DNA of 8,441 nucleotides. Source: a virus. The first letter of the stretch is position 1, and each line of letters begins with the position of its first letter. Below the pieces are notes generated by a model. It was given only the letters and a program-made list of their open reading frames with translations. It ran no database searches and had not been told where the DNA came from. Positions 1-8,441 of this stretch are shown piece after piece. Made by a program: the position numbers and the translations under genes. Where the stretch lies: the UHGV virus genome UHGV-0193111; one strand, 5' to 3'.

Positions 1-252
1 AAAACTCAGCGTCGGCTGTGTGTCGCGCTCCTCTTCACTGGCAGGCAGAACGGGTGTGGTTTGTTCAATAAAGGCTTCCAGTTCCTGACGGAGCGCAACC
101 AAATCCACAGAACACGCTTCCAGCGCCTCCCGGGCAGATGGGTTACTGAGCAGCGCCAGTAACAAGTGCTCGACGGTCATAAACTCATGACGGTGCTCGC
201 GCGCTCTGGCGAAAGCCATATTTAAACTGAGTTCCAGTTCTTGATTGAGCAT
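1..252 (-). CDS. clpA: ATP-dependent Clp protease ATP-binding subunit ClpA, N-terminal 84 codons (gene continues beyond window start)
   Basis: Reverse-strand translation from ATG at 252-250 gives MLNQELELSLNMAFARAREHRHEFMTVEHLLLALLSNPSAREALEACSVDL..., which I recognise as the ClpA N-domain. GGAGG-type RBS upstream. Lies 30 bp downstream of clpS, as in the enterobacterial clpS-clpA operon. Absent from the ORF track because it has no in-window stop. Confidence 0.9.
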   Translation of the reverse strand, partial: MLNQELELSLNMAFARAREHRHEFMTVEHLLLALLSNPSAREALEACSVDLVALRQELEAFIEQTTPVLPASEEERDTQPTLSF

Positions 253-282
253 AGGCACCTCCCCCAATTTTTATGCCTGCAT

Positions 283-603
283 TCAGGCTTTTTCTAGCGT
301 ACACAGCAATGGATGCTCATTCTCCCTCGCGTACTTGTTCACCATCGCCACTTTGGTTTCTGCAACCTCGGCGGTAAAGACTCCGCAAATGGCCTTCCCC
401 TGGTAGTGAACAGCGAGCATCAATTGCGTTGCACGTTCTACATCATAAGAAAAGAATTTTTGTAACACGTCAATAACAAACTCCATCGGAGTGTAATCAT
501 CATTGACTAATATCACTTTATACATAGATGGCGGTTTTAGCGCGTCGCGAACTTTTTCTTCCGCCAGTTGATCAAAGTCCAGCCAGTCGTTCGTTTTACC
601 CAT
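283..603 (-). CDS. clpS: ATP-dependent Clp protease adaptor protein ClpS
   Basis: 106-aa ORF ([51 protein letters not shown]...) matches my recollection of E. coli ClpS over its full length. Correct size and position upstream of clpA. Confidence 0.95.
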
Positions 604-777
604 TGTCAGTTATCATCTTCGGTTACGGTTATCGGCAGAACGCCCTGCCGCTGACAAGAGCTTATTTGCCTGACCAATCTACTCCACATGATAGATAACT
701 ATCATTTATAACATTTCATTGATTAGTCTTTATTTTTCACTGTGTTACAAATAACAACTCTGTCAAAAACAGCGAAA

Positions 778-833
778 TTAACTACACCATTAACTACACC
801 ATTTCACGAACAATATCGAACAACCACGAACAA
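778..833. repeat. Direct-repeat cluster: tandem 13-mer TTAACTACACCAT x2 (778-803) followed by three CGAACAA copies at 10-bp phasing (807-813, 817-823, 827-833)
   Basis: Read directly from the sequence. 10-bp periodicity suggests same-face protein binding sites (regulator or recombinase arm-type sites). Function unknown. Confidence 0.5.
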
Positions 834-1264
834 AGATCAACACGCTTTAACCGTTATCATTTTCCGGCCATCCGTTATGAAGCTGGTGGATGTTCCCCGA
901 TATGGGGATCCCCACCTACCCACTCCCCCCATACCGGAATTTTTTTCCGGTTAAACGTTAATCAGGCTGGTGGGCTTTACATACCCTTGATCACGGTAAT
1001 GATGATTCAGGTGCGTACCTTTTCCCCCAGTGGGGTAAAAGCTCCAACCGTAACGATGTTCGTTGTGGTTGCCTTGATGGTCTGCGTGGTCATTATGACC
1101 ATTCAGAATTTGAAGGGTGATGTTTCCGATCTCCTCAAATTGAGGTTGCCGGAAATATCAACGGGTTAGGCCAGAGTGCAAATTTGCGCTTTGCTTTAAG
1201 TTCAGCGAGTAACCGAAGGCGTAATTCCGCCCTCGGTACTCACATATGAGAAACGATATTTCTT

Positions 1265-1413
1265 CCACCGATACCCTTTATTTGGGTATCGCGAGTAAGC
1301 CCCAAAATCTGGGTGTTACTCTTACTACCCAAACTACGGGTAGTTTCCGTAGTTTCATAGTCGAGTTGCAGATCTGCAACTCGCCACCAGTTGCTAAGTG
1401 CATTTTTGCACTT
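1265..1413. promoter_or_regulatory. Cluster of inverted repeats: CGATACCC-n7-GGGTATCG (~1268-1290), AAACTAC-GG-GTAGTTT plus extra GTAGTTT (1331-1355), 22-bp perfect palindrome CGAGTTGCAGATCTGCAACTCG (1362-1383), AAGTGCA-TTTT-TGCACTT (~1396-1413)
   Basis: Read directly from the sequence. Lies between the chromosomal flank and the first island ORF. Candidate operator, recombination or attachment region; function not determinable by eye. Confidence 0.4.
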
Positions 1414-1430
1414 TCGGTAATATCAACCAG

Positions 1431-1712
1431 TTACCGCCGTAAGTGCTCCGGCTTCCTCCACTGGTAAGTATTTTTCGCGCTCTCCCTCCGTTGTTGAGAA
1501 CGGCGACGGTATGCCAGCAACTCAAGAACTCTGGTTCGTATGTTGCGCATATCCACGCCATTAAGTTCTATACCATCACGGCGCATCACCTCCGCAACAA
1601 CACGCGCATAATTTTCAGCGGTCACGCTGTCCGGCTGCATGGCCTGTTCGTCAACCTGCTGGCTGATTCCGGCAACGCGGCGGATTAATCCCAGTATTTC
1701 GGCTTCTGTCAT
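1431..1712 (-). CDS. Hypothetical protein, 93 aa, Arg-rich C-terminus (the ORF-track version extends to 1820 but would run across cosN)
   Basis: ORF-track ORF 1431..1820; I prefer the internal ATG at 1712 (MTEAEILGLIRRVAG...) because the longer form overlaps the cos site at 1768-1798. No family recognised. Confidence 0.35.
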   Translation of the reverse strand: MTEAEILGLIRRVAGISQQVDEQAMQPDSVTAENYARVVAEVMRRDGIELNGVDMRNIRTRVLELLAYRRRSQQRRESAKNTYQWRKPEHLRR

Positions 1713-1767
1713 TGTGCCCCCATCGTTCTGAAAGTCTGGTGTCGTCGGGTCCTTCCTGGAATTATGG

Positions 1768-1920
1768 CCCGTTACGGGGCGGCGACCTCGCGGTTTTTCG
1801 CTATTTATGAGCTTTTTCATGGGGGGGTGGTGGTTTTGTTGCTTGCTCTATCTCCATGAATAAAAAGGGAAAGATAACACCAACACACCAACCTGAAACC
1901 TTGACCAAGTTGGGATATTG
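1768..1920 (+). other. cos site 1: lambda-type cosN (cohesive-end sequence GGGCGGCGACCT at 1777-1788) plus a diverged cosB-like leader with tandem ACACCAAC repeat (1877-1892), directly upstream of terS
   Basis: 1768-1812 cccgttacggggcggcgacctcgcggtttttcgctatttatga is near-identical to the phage lambda left end and cosN junction as I recall it (GGGCGGCGACCTCGCGGGTTTTCGCTATTTATGA). Same position and orientation relative to the Nu1-like gene as in lambda. Confidence 0.8.
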
Positions 1921-2463
1921 ATGAAATCGCACCTGATGAACAAAAAAACCATGGCGCAAAGCTGCCGGGTAAGTGCTACAGCATTCGACAAGTGGGGAGT
2001 GACTCCCGTTGAACGTAAAGGCCGTGAGGCGTTTTATGATGTTGCCAGCGTGATAGACAATAGGGTTAACAATGCAATTAGCCAGCTTACAAACGACAAA
2101 GGCGAGATTGATGATGATGAACTCTTACGAGTCAGGATCAGATTACTGACAGCACAGGCGGAGGCGCAGGAACTTAAAAACGAGCGCGATCGCGGTGACG
2201 TGATTGATACAGAGTTTTGCATGTACGCGCTTTCAAAACTGGCGAGTCAGATTTCATCAATCATGGACAGCCTCCCGCTTACTATGCAAAGGAGCTTCCC
2301 ACACATTACCCCCGCTATGCTGGATGGGCTTAAAAGGGAAGTGGTTAAAGCCTGTAATGCCAGTGCCAGAGTTGCCGACAACCTCCCACAGATACTGGCT
2401 GATTACCTGAACGAAACAACCGGAAACGTACCGGAAAAGTTGCTACAGAAGAAAGGCGAGTAA
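1921..2463 (+). CDS. terS: Terminase small subunit, lambda Nu1-like
   Basis: Product aligns along most of its length with lambda Nu1 as I recall it (YDVASVI vs YDSAAVI; RLLTAQAEAQELKNERD vs RLTRAQADAQELKNARD; FCMYALSKLASQISSIMDSLPLTMQRSFP vs FCTFVLSRIAGEIASILDGLPLSVQRRFP; LKREVVKACN vs LKRDIIKAMN). ORF track starts at TTG 1918. First ATG is 1921; ATG 1936 (MNKK...) matches the Nu1 N-terminus MEVNKK best. Weak RBS for either. Confidence 0.85.
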   Translation: MKSHLMNKKTMAQSCRVSATAFDKWGVTPVERKGREAFYDVASVIDNRVNNAISQLTNDKGEIDDDELLRVRIRLLTAQAEAQELKNERDRGDVIDTEFCMYALSKLASQISSIMDSLPLTMQRSFPHITPAMLDGLKREVVKACNASARVADNLPQILADYLNETTGNVPEKLLQKKGE

Positions 2464-2487
2464 CAGACGCGCAATTATTGAACAAAA

Positions 2488-2663
2488 CTGAGAAACGACA
2501 TGAAAGCGTCATAAATCGCCATTTTAGATGATTACCGTGTCGTTTCTTTTTATTGTATATCTATTTAAAAACAAATAGTTATGTTCGAGAAGTACCGACA
2601 TGCTTTTTCCAGAAAAATTTTCATAAACAGATAAAAACCGCGAGGTCGCCGCCCCGTAACGGG
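2488..2663 (-). other. cos site 2 (inverted): lambda-type cosN (reverse complement of GGGCGGCGACCT at 2643-2654) with lambda-like cosB, including an inverted pair of R-site-like elements TGTCGTTTC (2538-2546) and GAAACGACA (2492-2500)
   Basis: 2633-2663 is the exact reverse complement of 1768-1798 (31 bp). The reverse complement of 2488-2640 parallels the lambda cosB region as I recall it (TTTATGAAAATTTTTCTGG; CATAACTATTTGTTTTTAAATAG; AAAAGAAACGACACGG; CATGTCGTTTCTC vs lambda TTTATGAAAATTTTCCGG; CATAACTTAATGTTTTTATTTAAAATA; AAAGGAAACGACAGG; CTCTGTCGTTTCC). Confidence 0.75.
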
Positions 2664-2686
2664 TCCATATGCCGGAAAGGACCCGT

Positions 2687-2710
2687 AAAAAAAAGCCGGA
2701 TTTCTCCGGC
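2687..2710 (-). terminator. Rho-independent terminator of the capsid operon (stem GCCGGA/TCCGGC, loop TTTC, followed on the minus-strand transcript by U8)
   Basis: Hairpin at 2695-2710 with A8 at 2687-2694 on the plus strand, immediately downstream of the 137-aa ORF stop (2717-2719). Confidence 0.6.
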
Positions 2711-2716
2711 CTTGTC

Positions 2717-3130
2717 TCAGATGGTTTTCAGTATGCGATCGATGTCGCCGTCATCGCCCTGGTTTCTGCCATCGTATGCCATGCCAGCTGATACGGCTTG
2801 CGGGCTGTGCATGTCCATAAAGTTTTCAAAGGCTGCGGTAAGCTCTGGTGCAACCTTTGGGCGCTCCTGCTCTATGGTCATGTTCAGGATTTCACGAGCA
2901 TTATCGACGCTAATACATGGCACGTTTGCCATTGCACGTAACAGCGGCTGATAGTCTTTATGCTCATGAAGCGCCATAATCGCATCAGCGCGCGGCTTGT
3001 CCTGCTCTTCCAGTTTGTTGAGTTGATATACGGCCTCGTAGGTTGATAAACCTCTGTCAGCCATTGCCCGCGCTTCTTCTTTAAATTTACTCGCCAGCGG
3101 TAGCGCCATGATGCTTTCATTCGTTGCCAT
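2717..3130 (-). CDS. Hypothetical protein, 137 aa, last gene of the capsid operon
   Basis: ORF with ATG at 3130 preceded by AGGGGGAA RBS, 12 bp after the decoration-protein stop; followed by a terminator. No family recognised; not obviously lambda FI or FII. Confidence 0.65.
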   Translation of the reverse strand: MATNESIMALPLASKFKEEARAMADRGLSTYEAVYQLNKLEEQDKPRADAIMALHEHKDYQPLLRAMANVPCISVDNAREILNMTIEQERPKVAPELTAAFENFMDMHSPQAVSAGMAYDGRNQGDDGDIDRILKTI

Positions 3131-3142
3131 CGTTCCCCCTGC

Positions 3143-3478
3143 TTATCGGGCCAGCGGCTGAACGGATACGCCGGAACCCGCAAAGGCGGCGCATTTTTTC
3201 GCATCGGTGTCGACGCTCTCAGGCCAGTTAACGGCGGCAATATTGAATATCCCCGTCTTGTAACACTGTGCTGATTTCTGCTTTGACGTGTCCACAGGAT
3301 ACGAAGTCAGATAAACAGCCTTGCCAGATTCCTGACCATCCCACGGCTTAAACTCGCCATTGTCCGCCAGCATCAGCGGGGTAAATTCCTGAATAACGCC
3401 AGCATCAGCGGCAAAATGTACCAGCGTCGTTGATACCTGCTGACTGCCTGCAAATAACTCAATGTATGGAGTGTTCAT
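3143..3478 (-). CDS. Head decoration protein, lambda gpD-like
   Basis: Product shares blocks with lambda gpD as I recall it (TPLML, WDG, YK-G-F, WPE, KK-AFAG, S-S-V) and has similar length (111 aa from ATG 3478; ORF track uses GTG 3487, 114 aa). Stop of the capsid gene lies 2 nt upstream of the GTG. Confidence 0.8.
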   Translation of the reverse strand: MNTPYIELFAGSQQVSTTLVHFAADAGVIQEFTPLMLADNGEFKPWDGQESGKAVYLTSYPVDTSKQKSAQCYKTGIFNIAAVNWPESVDTDAKKCAAFAGSGVSVQPLAR

Positions 3479-3489
3479 AGAATCCACCG

Positions 3490-4545
3490 TTAACCAATTT
3501 TGACGGTAACAAATTTGCGAATATCTGCCGGAACAGGCTGCGGTGCGCTGTGTGTCTGCACGTACTCAATCGCCGGATCGCCGTCTTCAATCCAGTTTTT
3601 CGGGTAAAACATGTTTTGCGTTGCGCCCGTTCTTACCGCTTCCTGTTCCATAATCGCACCATAGGCCACCAGCCCTTTATTGTTGGTGTTGCCCAGGACC
3701 AGCAAATCAGGCTCAAGGAAATATTTTTCTGTGCCGTCGCTGTCAGTGTATTTGCCGGAATAGACGATAAGGGCCAGATCACCAAGATAGCCTTTAAAGC
3801 TCACCACTTCTCCCAGGTTTTTACATGCCAGCTCTGCGGCGGATTCTGAACCACGGGAGAGATCGTACAGTTCACGGAATTTTTTAAAGCTGCGTAACAT
3901 GCGCCATACATCAACGCCCATAATCATGACGTTTGCGGGGCAACCTGCCTGATCTGCGTATAGCTCAATGTCATAGATTGGGTCGTGTATGTCTTTGTCC
4001 TGCTCTGACCATTTTTTACCGTCGGCCTGCTCTATGATGTTTTTTTCCGGTATCTTCCAGTCGATTTCATAGCGTTCTATGCCTTCGCCCTCAATGATGT
4101 TTTTTCCGGTCGTTATCGCATTCACCGCCATCCATTCCACGCGCGCTTTAATGGCGTTTATCTGGCGGCGCATGTTGCCAGTAATCAGGCGCATACGGCG
4201 GTAGGTAGGGTCGTTAAGCTGTGCCGGATCTTCTCCAGCCATGCGCATTATTGTTTTTAATGGATCGATTTCGTGTTTTGGCTTCATGTAGCCAGGGCGA
4301 ATAATGCTGGTTTCGTACCCTTTATCGCGCTGAACCTGGCTACCAACCATAGGCGAACAAAACGCCGACATAGTGACTTCTTCAATATCCAGGTTATCTA
4401 ACATGATGTCCTGTGTGTTGAATGTCGCCACGTTCGGGAAAAACAGCGCGGTAAACAGCGGACTGAATTTAAATTCCGCAATATCCTCGCGATTCAGGTA
4501 CGCGAAAAGCTGGTTAGTGTTAAGTGCCATTGCTTTGACTGCCAT
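3490..4545 (-). CDS. Major capsid protein, lambda gpE family
   Basis: 351-aa product shares many conserved blocks with lambda gpE as I recall it (FKF-PLF; PGY-KPKHE; DP-YRR-R; WS-RDK--DP-YDIE-YA; RSFK; GYLGD-A-VYSG-Y; LGNT--GL--YG-I; YPKNW--GDPA). ATG at 4545-4543 with GGGGGTGA RBS; start overlaps the stop of the upstream ORF (TAATG). Confidence 0.9.
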   Translation of the reverse strand: MAVKAMALNTNQLFAYLNREDIAEFKFSPLFTALFFPNVATFNTQDIMLDNLDIEEVTMSAFCSPMVGSQVQRDKGYETSIIRPGYMKPKHEIDPLKTIMRMAGEDPAQLNDPTYRRMRLITGNMRRQINAIKARVEWMAVNAITTGKNIIEGEGIERYEIDWKIPEKNIIEQADGKKWSEQDKDIHDPIYDIELYADQAGCPANVMIMGVDVWRMLRSFKKFRELYDLSRGSESAAELACKNLGEVVSFKGYLGDLALIVYSGKYTDSDGTEKYFLEPDLLVLGNTNNKGLVAYGAIMEQEAVRTGATQNMFYPKNWIEDGDPAIEYVQTHSAPQPVPADIRKFVTVKIG

Positions 4546-4751
4546 TATTCACCCCCATAATTTTTATGCATCCCAAGCGCCGCAAGTAAATAAGAGCGTA
4601 CAAGTGAACCTATCGACGGCTCCGGCGTCATCAGCGGATCCAGTCCAGCCGCCACGCCAGCCTCATAGTTTTTTTTGTGGCGCTGCTTGAGCACCTCCAC
4701 GATTTCGGGGCTTATGTACACCGAAACACCGCCTTTTTTCTCTTCTGCCAT
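4545..4751 (-). CDS. Hypothetical small protein, 68 aa, translationally coupled to the major capsid gene
   Basis: ATG at 4751 with AGAGGA RBS; stop overlaps the capsid gene start. First gene of the operon downstream of a palindromic promoter region. No family recognised (does not resemble lambda gpW despite equal length). Confidence 0.6.
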   Translation of the reverse strand: MAEEKKGGVSVYISPEIVEVLKQRHKKNYEAGVAAGLDPLMTPEPSIGSLVRSYLLAALGMHKNYGGE

Positions 4752-4779
4752 AGTCAGAAATTCCTCTTTGACTTAAAAA

Positions 4780-4818
4780 ATCACAACTGGATGTTCATCC
4801 AGTTATGATTATAATCAT
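4780..4818 (-). promoter_or_regulatory. Candidate promoter/operator of the capsid operon: inverted repeat AACTGGATG-n2-CATCCAGTT (4780-4799) and 14-bp perfect palindrome ATGATTATAATCAT (4805-4818) containing a consensus TATAAT
   Basis: Read directly from the sequence, 30-70 bp upstream of the 68-aa ORF start. No convincing -35 found, so promoter assignment is tentative. Confidence 0.4.
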
Positions 4819-4912
4819 GATTGCATTTTGCGCAATAAAATTGAGTTGTGTTGCAAATTATGAAATGATTTACAGCAACAGTAGTCACCATGCTGTTAAC
4901 CTCGTAAGCAAA

Positions 4913-4952
4913 AGCCCGATAAGCTTCCTCCTGTACTTATCGGGCTTTTTTT
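4913..4952 (+). terminator. Strong hairpin terminator (11-bp perfect stem AGCCCGATAAG/CTTATCGGGCT, then T7 on the plus strand); may also act on minus-strand transcripts (U4 on that side)
   Basis: Read directly from the sequence. No annotated plus-strand gene ends here, so it may insulate the two operons or terminate a small plus-strand RNA. Confidence 0.5.
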
Positions 4953-4958
4953 GGGTAC

Positions 4959-4980
4959 AAAAAGCCGGATTTTCTCCGGC
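4959..4980 (-). terminator. Rho-independent terminator after ssb (stem GCCGGA/TCCGGC, loop TTTTC, U5 on minus-strand transcript)
   Basis: Hairpin 4964-4980 with A5 at 4959-4963 on the plus strand, 9 bp downstream of the ssb stop; near-identical to the terminator at 2687-2710. Confidence 0.55.
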
Positions 4981-4988
4981 CTGTGCGT

Positions 4989-5399
4989 TCAGAACGGAAT
5001 ATCATCACCGTAGGGGTCATCGTCTCCCGCTGGTGGCTGATTACCCTGTGCGCCTGTGGTTTTGCGTCTGTTCCCGCCAGGACGTGCCGCACGGGCACTG
5101 ATTACGCTGTCTGCAATAACCTGATAACCCTGCCGCGTTTCCCCGTTCTGTCCGGTCCACTGGCTTATCTGCATCACGCCAGATATGCTGGCAACGTCGC
5201 CTTTTTGATGTTTAGCCAGGAAGTCGGCCTGCTTACCAAATGCCATCACCGATAGCCATAACGTAGCCGTTCCGTCATCTGCCTGGCTGCACGGAAGGGG
5301 GACCGCCATACGCGCCAGCGTCATCGGTGTGCCCTTGCTGGTCTGTTTTACCTGCGGGTCGTCCACCAGCCGCCCGTAAGCTGCTATCTGTGCTGTCAT
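4989..5399 (-). CDS. ssb: Single-stranded DNA-binding protein
   Basis: 136-aa product with an SSB-like OB-fold core (FGK...KGD...ISG...W...GE-R) and a Gly/Pro-rich linker ending in the acidic tail DDDPYGDDIPF, the hallmark SSB C-terminal motif. Start ATG overlaps the upstream ORF stop (ATGA). Confidence 0.85.
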   Translation of the reverse strand: MTAQIAAYGRLVDDPQVKQTSKGTPMTLARMAVPLPCSQADDGTATLWLSVMAFGKQADFLAKHQKGDVASISGVMQISQWTGQNGETRQGYQVIADSVISARAARPGGNRRKTTGAQGNQPPAGDDDPYGDDIPF

Positions 5400-5647
5400 G
5401 CTGTCTGCTCTCCGGTTTTAACGTTGATGGTTGTTACCTGTTCCGCTTCGGCAATCTCCCGCTCTGTCAGCGTGGCAAAATTTGCCGCCGCCGTGGTCAT
5501 GAATGCGCTTATCAGGTCGGGATGTTCCTTCGCGTATCCTTCCCGCGTGTGGCGGTCTATCGTTCTGATTGCCACCTTTAAGGTGTGCTCAGTCATGTCT
5601 AACGCTTTATATTTTGGCTCTGTTCTGTCTCTGCGTGTTCTGGTCAT
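5396..5647 (-). CDS. Hypothetical protein, 83 aa, translationally coupled to ssb
   Basis: ATG at 5647 with GAGGTGG RBS (ORF track starts 4 codons earlier at TTG 5659); stop overlaps the ssb start. No family recognised. Confidence 0.55.
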   Translation of the reverse strand: MTRTRRDRTEPKYKALDMTEHTLKVAIRTIDRHTREGYAKEHPDLISAFMTTAAANFATLTEREIAEAEQVTTINVKTGEQTA

Positions 5648-5660
5648 TTGCCACCTCAAT

Positions 5661-5999
5661 TTATATATATATATAGAAACATGTGCGGGTTATGCGGGTT
5701 ATTGGGTTATCTTAGCGTGCTAACCATTTTTTATCCTTTTATATCAGTATTTTGCAAAACACCCTGTTTATTATTTGCTCACCACGTAACCCGCAAAACG
5801 CTCAAAATAACCCGCAAACGGGGTTTTTTCTGCGGGTTACGCATGACTGTCCGGTGTTACTTCAGTTATTCGCCTGCGGGTTATAATCGTGCTTTTGCGG
5901 GTTATAAATGCCCTTTTGCGGGTTACGTGCGGGTTATTGGTTTCCTTTATATTCATGCACTTAATACACTTATACACAGGATAACCCGCATAACCCGCA
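5661..5999. repeat. Putative replication origin: iteron array of 11 perfect TGCGGGTTA 9-mers (plus strand at 5684, 5693, 5831, 5875, 5896, 5917, 5928; inverted at 5787, 5808, 5982, 5991) with AT-rich tracts including (TA)n at 5661-5676
   Basis: Repeats read directly from the sequence; several pairs spaced 21 bp (5787/5808; 5875/5896/5917), tandem pairs at both edges in opposite orientation. Located immediately downstream of the primase/helicase gene, as is typical for Pri-Rep plus ori modules of phage-inducible islands. Confidence 0.75.
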
Positions 6000-6021
6000 A
6001 TTTTTTTCCTCACACAGGGGA

Positions 6022-8145
6022 TTAATCTTCATCATCAGGCTGGAACATCAGCACGTAAAAAACATGCTGCTTACCCCCAATCTTGCCCAGCGCCTTTTTT
6101 TTGTATCGGCGATCGCTTCCCTTCTCCAGCATTCCGGCAGCATCCAGGGCACGCGCAAAATGCGCCGGATTAAATCCCTTCGCTATCTCACTATCAAACA
6201 CGTGCGGGAACGTGTAATAGCGCATCTCGTCATCTTCGTTGCGAATGCTCCCTTTTCTGTATCCGGCAAGCTCTTTAATCGGTAAATCACGCTCATCTGT
6301 ATTGGGGTACGGAAGGTAGCGGCTAAACCCAAACGACGACAAAAACGCCTCAGCCTGTTCAACCATCTGTTTAAATTCCCTGTTACCCGTGCCGAACTCC
6401 TTCACCCAGGCATTAAAGTTATGCTGTATCGCGTCGCAGCATTCCTGCACGACCCAGCCAGTTACATGACCGGAAAGCACAAGCGCGGCCTCCAGTATGG
6501 CGAAACGTTCACCCACGCGGTGGACCTGCTCGCCGTAACTCTCCGGTATCAGGTTGCGCCACCGTTCGCGGCATTCCCTTACCGTGTCCTTTGCCTCCTG
6601 CTGGTGGCCTGCCAGCCATTTAACCCACTCACGACCCGCCGCCCCGTGATTTGCTGTCCAGGCATCCTTTAACGCGTCAGCATGTTCCTTACCGTTGCTG
6701 TATTCGTGAAATTTCGTGGCTTTTTCCATCGGAACGTTAAGCAGTCGGACAAGCTGCCCCGCCTTAACTTTTATCCCCTCACTTTTGAGGAATGTCTCAA
6801 CGTCCATTTCTCCGGTGCTGATTGCCACCGTTCGCCAGTGTTTGATCTCCCTGTTGCCGCCATCCTTCGCCCCCTGCAATTTCCCTGAACCGTTAAACAG
6901 CGTATAAGCAGACGTTGACACTTCCCGCGCATTTCCGGCCTGGCCTATCTCATCCAGTGGTAAAAGCCCGTCATTATGGGCCTCGGCCTCATTGGCAATA
7001 CCTAACGCCGTGCCGTACCAGGTCAGCCGCTGCGCGTCCGGCTCTCCCCATAAACTTGATGCGATGTTCTGCGTGGTGGTCTTACCTGCCGATGACTGTT
7101 CGAAAAGATGCACCCCGAAGCCGTCAGCACCCACAAGGCCAATTAAAGGCGCTGCCAGTGACGTTGCCACACCCAGCATCATTGAGGCATTACCGCCAGC
7201 CAGCCGCGCCACGCTGTCGCGCCAGCCATCCGCCGTGCCAGCCACGGAATAACCGTTAATCGCGGCGCTTTTTCCGGTAAACAGGATCGGTTTTTCAGAT
7301 TCACCAATGATCGAACCGTCCGGCATGATGTACGCGCCAAAATGCCAGCCCGTTGTTGTGCTTAACTGCCATTCCTCATGGCTTCCGCTTAACTGCATCC
7401 AGTCCGCCAGGATTGCCCTGTATTTGCCGTTGGTTGTCACGTTCAGCCCGTGATCTTTAAGTAACCGCCAGCCGTCACGGTCGCCGATACCACCACACGG
7501 GATCGCCATTGTGATGACTTCATGGTTTGCGGTTTTTTTCCAGCGCATCACGCGGTAATGCTCTTTACCGATCGTCCCCGTTCCCAGTAGTTCAAGCGGA
7601 GAACATAACCACGTCTCAGGCCGGATAATTTCGCCTGACTGCTTATCCACTTTGGGCGTTACCCAGAAAACACCATCGGCGCGACTTTCAACGCGTGGCT
7701 TTAATTCGTCATCGCTATGACTTCCGGTATCTTTTTTCTTTACCGGAAGCTCAATAACCAGACCATCAGAAAGATTCTGCCGCTCACGGGCCAGATATTC
7801 GCGCCAGTTCTCCACCTTCTGAACGTGCATTCCATCAGGGTAAAAATTTGCATCCTGTACGCCTGCCGCCGCCAGCTTCTGACCAATCGCCTTGATCATT
7901 ACTGGCTCAAGATGTCCGGCCCTGAATATGCGTACTGATTTTCGGCCTTCCGGCACAATTTGCAGCTTATCCAGTTCGGCAAGTTGTTGCTCTCCAAGCC
8001 AGACAGGAGGCACGTTATCGCCAGCCAGTCGCCCGTCCTGTTCCTGCCACTGCTTCGCATGTGCCCACGCATCACTACCCGCAAAAATGATGACTTCCGT
8101 CATTTTGTCACGTGGCTGGTGTTTTAAATTTGGCGCTTTTTTCAT
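6022..8145 (-). CDS. Replication initiator of primase/helicase type (P-loop NTPase; Pri-Rep-like); exact family not resolved
   Basis: 707 aa from ATG 8145 with GGAGAG RBS (ORF track uses GTG 8160, 712 aa). Contains a Walker A-like SSAGKTT and a Walker B-like LLPLDE motif. Large size and position directly upstream of an iteron array. Start overlaps the stop of the upstream ORF (ATGA). Confidence 0.8.
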   Translation of the reverse strand: MKKAPNLKHQPRDKMTEVIIFAGSDAWAHAKQWQEQDGRLAGDNVPPVWLGEQQLAELDKLQIVPEGRKSVRIFRAGHLEPVMIKAIGQKLAAAGVQDANFYPDGMHVQKVENWREYLARERQNLSDGLVIELPVKKKDTGSHSDDELKPRVESRADGVFWVTPKVDKQSGEIIRPETWLCSPLELLGTGTIGKEHYRVMRWKKTANHEVITMAIPCGGIGDRDGWRLLKDHGLNVTTNGKYRAILADWMQLSGSHEEWQLSTTTGWHFGAYIMPDGSIIGESEKPILFTGKSAAINGYSVAGTADGWRDSVARLAGGNASMMLGVATSLAAPLIGLVGADGFGVHLFEQSSAGKTTTQNIASSLWGEPDAQRLTWYGTALGIANEAEAHNDGLLPLDEIGQAGNAREVSTSAYTLFNGSGKLQGAKDGGNREIKHWRTVAISTGEMDVETFLKSEGIKVKAGQLVRLLNVPMEKATKFHEYSNGKEHADALKDAWTANHGAAGREWVKWLAGHQQEAKDTVRECRERWRNLIPESYGEQVHRVGERFAILEAALVLSGHVTGWVVQECCDAIQHNFNAWVKEFGTGNREFKQMVEQAEAFLSSFGFSRYLPYPNTDERDLPIKELAGYRKGSIRNEDDEMRYYTFPHVFDSEIAKGFNPAHFARALDAAGMLEKGSDRRYKKKALGKIGGKQHVFYVLMFQPDDED

Positions 8146-8441
8146 TTCTGCTCTCTCCACGCGGCAATCATGTTTTTTAGTTCCTGTAGTTTTTTATCAA
8201 CATCCATACATGACACATGGTTATTTCTGGAAAGCGGGATTTCCCGCCTGAATCTGCTAATAAAGATCTCCACGTTCAGCGAACTAAGAAATGAATAGCC
8301 ATCACGGATAAAATACACACGGTCAAACATCAGTTCTTTTACCGTTACTCTGTTACCGTTCTTATCCAGATAAATAGCGCCGGGGATAATTTGGGGGTGT
8401 GCATAACCGCTGGCAGTCAAGCCAGATAAATATGTTCTCAT
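8142..8441 (-). CDS. Hypothetical protein, at least 99 aa; may continue beyond the window end
   Basis: Open frame runs to the window edge (an ATG happens to sit at 8441-8439); stop overlaps the primase start. No family recognised; not AlpA-like. Confidence 0.45.
   Translation of the reverse strand: MRTYLSGLTASGYAHPQIIPGAIYLDKNGNRVTVKELMFDRVYFIRDGYSFLSSLNVEIFISRFRREIPLSRNNHVSCMDVDKKLQELKNMIAAWREQK

Follow-up and report, generated by a model that had tools for sequence, protein, structure and literature searches.

The window analysed here is a stretch of 8,441 nucleotides (nt) from the virus genome UHGV-0193111, which begins with bacterial chromosome carrying the start of clpA and all of clpS and continues into a satellite element whose packaging module consists of two cos sites around a small-terminase gene, terS. 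The 12-nt cosN sequence of phage lambda, GGGCGGCGACCT, is present in exactly two copies, at 1777-1788 on the plus strand (hereafter cos1) and at 2643-2654 on the minus strand (cos2), a two-match result that was returned by none of 200 shuffles of the window. Each copy is centred in one arm of a 77-nt inverted repeat, the arms of which are 81% complementary and share an identical 31-nt core, cccgttacgGGGCGGCGACCTcgcggttttt. The cosQ motif GGGTCCT stands, without mismatch, 30 nt upstream of cosN at both sites, and lambda cosQ (48473-48479), counted from the right-end sequence, presumably has the same offset. The two sites are 866 bp apart in inverted orientation, such that each faces inward, toward the other. 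On the strand that reads into each cosB, cosN together with the T-run of I2 scores as a terminator-like hairpin (1775-1798, plus strand, and 2633-2656, minus strand), a score that probably reflects no more than the partial symmetry of cosN. The I2 hexamer, critical for cos according to Feiss and colleagues (PMC4856287), is TATGAA at cos2 and TATGAG at cos1 (five of six positions).

Aligning the copy at 2643 with lambda cos identifies it as a lambda-like site. Read on the minus strand, the alignment spans cosQ, cosN, I2, R3, an AT-rich I1, R2 and R1, and the region is ~74% identical to lambda cos and 85% identical to that of phage PhiR5_1. Its R boxes are R3 TGTCGGTACT (2591-2600, minus strand), R2 TGTCGTTTCT (2538-2547, plus strand) and R1 TGTCGTTTCT (2491-2500, minus strand), of which R1 and R2 were also recovered as an inverted pair in the repeat search. 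R2 is opposed to R3 and R1, an arrangement shared with lambda (PMC9026076). Taken as a whole, cos2 (2482-2685, minus strand) has both the cosN/cosQ spacing of a lambda-type cos and the succession of I2 and R3-I1-R2-R1. A first-pass annotation of this DNA had placed the cosB of the 2643-2654 cosN at lower coordinates, and both the alignment and the strands of the R boxes agree; since the cosB lies there, cos2 points leftward, toward clpS and clpA. Given its likeness to lambda cos, cos2 would be usable by the TerS of a lambdoid helper.

The site next to terS is of a different kind. At cos1 (1746-1917, plus strand), cosQ, cosN and I2 are followed by a region, cosB', in which phage-type R boxes were not found; in their place are GGTGGT/CACCAAC motifs, with GGTGGTGGTTTTGTTG at 1826-1841 and CACCAACACACCAACC at 1878-1893. 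Beyond the shared arm, cosB' had no match among phage records. It lies at higher coordinates than its cosN, and cos1 does point rightward into the element, as the first-pass annotation had said of the terS-proximal site. That annotation had also treated the 2643 copy as the inverted one of the two. The leftward direction of this copy stands, but it is the phage-like member of the pair, both sites face inward, and it is the terS-proximal cosB that matches no phage.

The product of terS matches Pfam Phage_Nu1 (3.1e-23) and, across residues 1-175, phrog_57 (4e-52), and the closest phage TerS, gp1 of N15, is just 45.5% identical to it. Phages with the same cosB' or TerS, which could represent a second helper type, were sought and none was found. 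TerS was also considered as a candidate Rpp and rejected by sequence, as it gave no match to RppC chains at E values up to 1 in a comparison of sequences, not of folds. In a sequence search of the PDB, both TerS and a 129-amino-acid (aa) open reading frame (ORF) that runs across the cosN of cos1 (1431-1820, minus strand) returned only noise, with no match to RppC or to the Nu1 DNA-binding domain. We rejected this ORF as a gene; it is an upstream extension of a 93-aa gene whose product matches PHROG 1561 end to end. Throughout the canonical relatives described below, and in the single-cos relative N10, cosB' stays beside the start of terS. From this constant pairing, and from the lack of a phage match to cosB', we infer a private TerS/cosB' pair beside a helper-like cos: the satellite TerS would have cosB' as its cognate site and would in turn recruit the large terminase of the helper. 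The coordinates of these and other features are collected in Table 1.

Table 1. Features of the window, with positions counted from its first nucleotide.
Feature	Position	Strand	Basis or remark
clpA, 5' part (chromosome)	1-252	-	Matches L001 and K-12
clpS (chromosome)	283-603	-	106-aa ORF; annotated clpS in L001, L002 and K-12
attL core GATAGATAACTATCAT	690-705		Homology to the empty K-12 site ends; satellite from ~706
Conserved 93-aa satellite gene, PHROG 1561	1431-1712	-	phrog_1561 match 1-93/93, E 3.7e-54
Left arm of inverted repeat, cos1 core	1746-1822	+	cosQ 1747-1753, cosN 1777-1788, I2 from 1789; rightward-pointing
Putative satellite-specific cosB' of cos1	1823-1917	+	Directly 5' of terS
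terS	1921-2463	+	Full-length Nu1-family small terminase, 180 aa from ATG
Lambda-like cosB of cos2	2482-2608	-	Alignment to lambda cos; AT-rich I1-like spacer
Right arm of inverted repeat, cos2 core	2609-2685	-	cosN 2643-2654, cosQ 2678-2684; leftward, toward attL/clpS
Terminator-like hairpin	2692-2713	-	Closes the capsid-gene operon, just upstream of cos2 cosQ
137-aa gene, like the C terminus of Nu3/gpC	2717-3130	-	Matches phrog_53 (head maturation protease) 494-567/583
gpD-like decoration gene	3143-3487	-	Pfam HDPD
gpE-like major capsid gene	3490-4545	-	Pfam Phage_cap_E

Judged by homology and gene order, the window from 706 to 8441 is the int-distal part of a cos-type phage-inducible chromosomal island (PICI) of the EcCICFT073 family, inserted between clpS and cspD/yljB. 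We located EcCICFT073 itself, the model PICI of Gram-negative bacteria (Fillol-Salom 2018, 2019), in the CFT073 genome (locus L009, 7930-19100). Synteny with it extends over int, a helix-turn-helix (HTH) gene, DUF4222, primase, single-stranded DNA-binding protein (SSB), PerC, a 68-aa protein, capsid, decoration, the 137-aa gene, rppA and the 93-aa gene, where the int/HTH end of the order was read in same-site relatives, outside the window. The gene order int-alpA...primase-ori...capsid-cos, a size of ~11 kb, the absence of lysis and tail genes and the presence of two cos sites are all those of the family; the family's Rpp is missing, and a Nu1-family TerS occupies its position. In EcCICFT073, two functional cos sites with phage-like cosQ and cosN have been described, of which the deletion of cos1 lowers transfer by lambda and phi80, the deletion of cos2 raises transfer and the double deletion abolishes it, and Rpp retargets the helper TerS to the cosB of cos1 (PMC6092414, PMC6739421). 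Cloned EcCICFT073 cos2 supports plasmid transfer (PMC6092414).

The main texts of three papers on this system leave the relative orientation of the EcCICFT073 cos sites unmentioned. In the CFT073 sequence, the two cosN are likewise convergent and bracket rppA, and a facing cos pair around a packaging-specificity gene is thus the normal architecture of the family, not a peculiarity of the window. The CFT073 cos on the side of the 137-aa gene has a non-phage cosB, with ACCACCACC at positions 55-63, the element of EcCICFT073 cos1 that Murialdo and Feiss proposed as R3-PICI. On the side of the 93-aa gene (L009 18150-18300), inverted CATGTCCGGTTTCT / GAACCGGACATG boxes flank an AT-rich spacer, as they also do in locus L001 at 11480-11610; these boxes of CFT073 cos2 look like a phage-type R-I-R cosB, though the papers report no identifiable phage cosB in the island. 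The place taken by R3 lies ~50-63 nt from the cosN start; there the island in the window has GGTGGTGGT (1826-1841) and EcCICFT073 cos1 (L009) has ACCACCACC, the same triplet repeat in reverse complement. The TerS-type and Rpp-type islands may thus use related recognition elements in opposite orientation, or the likeness may be a coincidence.

Relative to most of its relatives, the window has the 0.9-kb segment between the cosN cores inverted. Compared with RM10466, Nissle 1917 and eight loci with an identical 180-aa TerS, the window is colinear in the flanks and reversed in the interior; in the eight identical-TerS loci, the interior is 98-99% identical to that of the window. An identical TerS protein is therefore found in both orientations. 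Sequence variants of the outer arm halves stay with the flanks and those of the inner halves travel with the interior, which places the crossover inside the 31-nt identical cosN core. The hairpin at 2692-2713 is kept beside the 137-aa gene in all relatives. As a consequence of the inversion, it is the helper-type cos, not the satellite-type, that faces the attL/clpS junction in the window, and terS is antisense to the capsid operon. We found no description of this inversion isomer in the literature, and no usable literature on inverted cos sites or terminase-driven inversion.

Junctions were counted in 5426 complete E. coli genomes. Of these, 498 contain the canonical right junction (137-aa gene, arm, cosB', terS) and 105 the canonical left junction with this lambda-like cosB, against 5 with the window-type left junction, including the terS start, and 4 with the window-type right junction; the inverted form makes up ~1% of terS-type junctions. 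Another version, found in a further 44 genomes and exemplified by SCU-172, lacks terS, has the satellite-type cosB on the side of the 93-aa gene and is flipped with respect to CFT073. The orientation of the window is also that of the complete genomes PM4-5, LZHX12, 2014C-4587, 2013C-4282 and JNE181771 and of draft assemblies. Inverted repeats can mislead short-read assemblers, and the orientation could in principle be an assembly artefact of this kind; with arms of just 77 nt that are 81% alike, and with the same orientation recurring in several independent complete genomes and in drafts, we regard such an artefact as next to impossible.

There are possible explanations for the two orientations. 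One hypothesis is that the cos-terS-cos cassette is a functional invertible switch, which would set the expression of terS and the type of cosB that follows the capsid operon as a form of bet-hedging on helper specificity, and which may flip either by recombination or by terminase cuts at both cosN followed by religation either way through the identical cohesive ends. In agreement with a switch, the two orientations are both found, their breakpoints falling within the cosN core, and the inverted copies represent three integration sites (clpS, tqsA, yejO) and two or more diverged interiors; in addition, the convergent layout is kept from rpp-type to terS-type islands, and a complete cos follows the operon terminator in either orientation. 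However, a fast switch would give mixtures, whereas orientation is uniform within lineages: the identical-TerS copies at the mug/rpoD site are all canonical and the copies of that type at the tqsA site are all inverted. The scarcity of the inverted form likewise speaks against switching. Like the Hin/Gin/Fim-type switches, the cassette occurs in both orientations in nature, but the dedicated invertase of those systems has no counterpart here, there being no recombinase among the ORFs of the window, in or beside the cassette; the integrase of the island is encoded at a distance of ~10 kb, with an att core that is not related to the arms of the inverted repeat.

The inverted module of the window may, moreover, have been acquired in one piece through recombination. 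The cos-terS-cos module (1414-2800) is 98-100% identical to that of PM4-5 (tqsA site), with 100% at the left junction (1640-1930) and 98.3% at the right junction, and the colinear stretch 1414-4980 as a whole is 93% identical. The replication module (4989-8441) is closest, at 98%, to the clpS-site islands of SCU-172/N10, and those carry different packaging modules; on these identities the window element is a mosaic. Among complete E. coli genomes, none matched the window over its entire length. Pairs of opposite orientation at the same site (Nissle vs 2014C-4587; RM10466 vs PM4-5) were considered as recent flips and rejected, as they are only ~88% identical. It is the identical-TerS set, with its members in both orientations, that shows recent flips. 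The distribution fits rare inversion events and not a rapidly switching element, and we consider a functional switch unlikely. The same doubt applies to a self-flipping cassette, in which each round of helper terminase action would cut both cosN and the 0.9-kb piece would religate or recombine (by cos-stimulated Red or RecA exchange) either way. If true, self-flipping would amount to a recombinase-free packaging-specificity switch between a state with the satellite cos leading and terS in sense and a state with the helper cos leading and terS in antisense.

Our preferred explanation, to which we give a probability of about 0.72, is that the window carries the two-cos packaging module of an EcCICFT073-type PICI, in a terS variant and as a rare inversion isomer, and not a device for moving clpS-clpA. 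The cassette consists of two convergent cos sites around the small-terminase gene that share cosQ-cosN-I2 as the 77-nt inverted repeat, with the satellite TerS presumably acting at cos1, that of the helper at cos2, and both sites presumably open to cutting. Excision and replication, triggered by the helper, would come first. Either cos could then start the packaging of the circular or concatemeric element, and packaging would stop where that site next recurs in the same orientation. Because packaging after excision would just go round the element, its direction relative to the chromosome would be without consequence. Most simply, the flip itself would be a rare event in which the inverted cos cores recombined, perhaps with terminase cutting as a stimulus; cos cutting is known to stimulate Red recombination. 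The flip could have proceeded through RecA or helper Red acting over the 31 identical bases, or through religation of a piece with two identical cohesive ends.

The first-pass annotation had raised the possibility of a different role for cos2, namely that a helper terminase, if it acts on this site in the integrated element, could package clpS-clpA and the DNA beyond at high frequency, by in situ or lateral transduction. In situ initiation is conceivable in the light of lambda: Sternberg and Weisberg (1975) reportedly found that excision-defective lysogens package the prophage together with adjacent host DNA from cos, giving 'doc' particles. In these, packaging is initiated in situ when excision is blocked, but the heads are left with uncut protruding DNA. 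The chromosomal flank that the annotation named is borne out, as positions 1-709 of the window are 99.9% identical to the clpA-clpS-yljB region of K-12, and cos2 is a complete lambda-like cos that points at this flank from 1.94 kb away. Terminase remains at the end that carries cosB, and translocation starts from there (PMC4856287); packaging from cos2 would accordingly run leftward through terS, cos1, the 93-aa gene and attL into clpS-clpA, with ~1.94 kb of element DNA between cos2 and attL on this path. In addition, Staphylococcus aureus pathogenicity islands (SaPIs) of the pac type, which are also PICIs, do carry out lateral transduction (PMC12829572).

Lateral transduction is, however, a headful (pac) phenomenon, and 'cos phages do not' engage in it, in the words of the Penades group (PMC12829572, PMC12946183). 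For packaging by a cos terminase to end, a cosQ-cosN in the same orientation is required downstream (PMC4856287, PMC6687093); when a second cos is lacking, translocation runs on, the DNA is not matured, and the protruding uncut DNA blocks the joining of tails (PMC6687093, PMC4856287). As proxies for the source genome we used K-12 and SCU-172, the latter carrying a related PICI at the same site, and in neither was a cosN in the needed orientation found within 50 kb beyond clpS. The K-12 flank has a single cosN with 1 mismatch, on the wrong strand, where 3.8 are expected by chance, and the SCU-172 flank has five matches at <=2 mismatches, where 5.0 are expected by chance. Nor can cos1 terminate packaging begun at cos2, since its orientation is opposite. 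Of what lateral transduction would call for, a site inside the element that faces the flank is present, while headful packaging and a flanking cos in the same orientation are not. Nothing points to delayed excision, and no literature linking EcCICFT073-type islands to lateral transduction was found. Furthermore, hundreds of genomes with the canonical arrangement, and EcCICFT073 as well, already have the satellite's own cos directed at the nearby chromosomal junction; as an outward-pointing cos is a feature of the canonical isomer too, this geometry is a general property of the family and not special to the copy in the window. High-frequency transfer of clpS-clpA initiated at the cos of an integrated island would overturn the headful-only rule if it were true, but the evidence here is against it, and we consider it very unlikely.

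Several points also weigh against the preferred explanation of a two-cos PICI module in a rare inverted state. For this element, cutting at either site, the pairing of TerS with cosB' and the identity of the helper are inferred, and it was in relatives and proxies that its integrase end and distal flank were read. Inversion has also cut terS off from the upstream operon, and a consensus scan, too crude to conclude from, found no sigma-70-like promoter ahead of it. The satellite-specific packaging route may consequently be silent in this copy, with the helper-type cos left in the leading position. Finally, the second cos of EcCICFT073 reduces transfer (PMC6092414), so the usability of either site does not explain the conservation of this second cos.

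This last point could be met if the helper-like cos were mainly an interference decoy, titrating helper terminase or causing unproductive cuts. The cosB of cos2 does resemble that of a helper, and since the deletion of EcCICFT073 cos2 raises transfer, the site is not kept for transfer under those conditions (PMC6092414). On the other hand, plasmids do transfer by means of the cloned EcCICFT073 cos2 and deleting both sites has a worse effect than deleting cos1 alone (PMC6092414), and one extra site per island copy would seem a weak sink. A decoy is, in our view, distinctly unlikely.

The remainder of the locus conforms to the assignment as an integrated PICI. Homology to the clpA-clpS-yljB region of K-12 stops at the att core (690-705), and positions 1-920 of the window are 99.5% identical to 9001-9920 of L001, where clpA is annotated at 6976-9252. 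In the same-site element of SCU-172, attR at the opposite end carries the att core GATAGATAACTATCAT again, with 1 mismatch; the integrase end of the island, outside the window, adjoins yljB and cspD in SCU-172 and N10. Tandem ATTAACTACACC(ATT) repeats are found just inside attL (765-800), with like copies inside the attR of a same-site relative (L001 20815-20840), and these are probably arm-type integrase binding sites. All satellite genes in the window except terS are on the minus strand. The 93-aa gene is annotated, as 282 nt, in L001, L002, L003, Nissle and CFT073. The capsid and decoration region (2717-4545) is syntenic with c1499/c1500 of EcCICFT073, and the part of phrog_53 that is matched by the 137-aa protein is the Nu3 scaffold part of lambda gpC. 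The transcript order of these capsid homologues, E, D and Nu3-like, is the lambda order reversed. Further genes in the window encode a 68-aa protein, SSB, an 87-aa protein, a DUF927 primase-helicase and a DUF4222 protein. Between the 87-aa gene and the primase-helicase gene lies a dense array of direct and inverted TGCGGGTTAT iterons (5677-6006), which is, to judge from its sequence, the replication origin expected of a PICI.

What is useful in these observations is the convergent arrangement of EcCICFT073-type cos sites around a packaging-specificity gene, the combination of a putatively private and a helper-like cosB in terS-type islands, and the existence of two natural isomers. Together they offer a handle on why a second cos that lowers transfer is conserved. 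They are also relevant to the annotation and engineering of such islands, one of which, a related terS-type island with a canonical two-cos cassette, is carried by E. coli Nissle 1917 at yejO/narP (L005, 941-949 kb).

Among known systems, SaPIbov4 and SaPIbov5 resemble the element in having a helper-type cos, and SaPIbov5 in having a capsid-protein homologue; two putative cos sites have been reported for SaPIbov4 (PMC6092414). They differ in that their sequences are unrelated, their cos phages are staphylococcal and HNH-dependent, and neither a convergent layout nor an inversion is reported for them. With the pac-type SaPIs the element shares a packaging site that is close to the int-distal end and directed at the chromosome, as well as a satellite small terminase that redirects (here putatively) the helper large terminase to the satellite site. 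The SaPIs of that type package by headful and so need no second site, which is why they can carry flanking DNA, whereas the present element is of the cos type. The likeness to lambda itself comprises the identical cosN, the cosQ spacing, the I2 hexamer, the R3-I1-R2-R1 of cos2 with R2 opposed, and a TerS of the Nu1 family. In contrast to lambda, there are two inverted sites 866 bp apart in the absence of terL, portal or tail genes, the R boxes of cos2 are TGTCGTTTCT where those of lambda are TGTCGTTTCCTTTCT, and the cosB of cos1 is unrelated. The closest counterpart in architecture is EcCICFT073, with which the element shares the gene order from int to the 93-aa gene, the gpE- and gpD-like genes, two convergent cos sites and a non-phage cosB by the packaging-specificity gene. 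It departs from EcCICFT073 in that a full-length 180-aa Nu1-family terS takes the place of the shorter Rpp between the sites, the cosB of the second cos is clearly of the lambda-like R3-I1-R2-R1 form, the cassette is inverted, and the island is integrated at clpS/cspD, while that of CFT073 lies next to phoQ.

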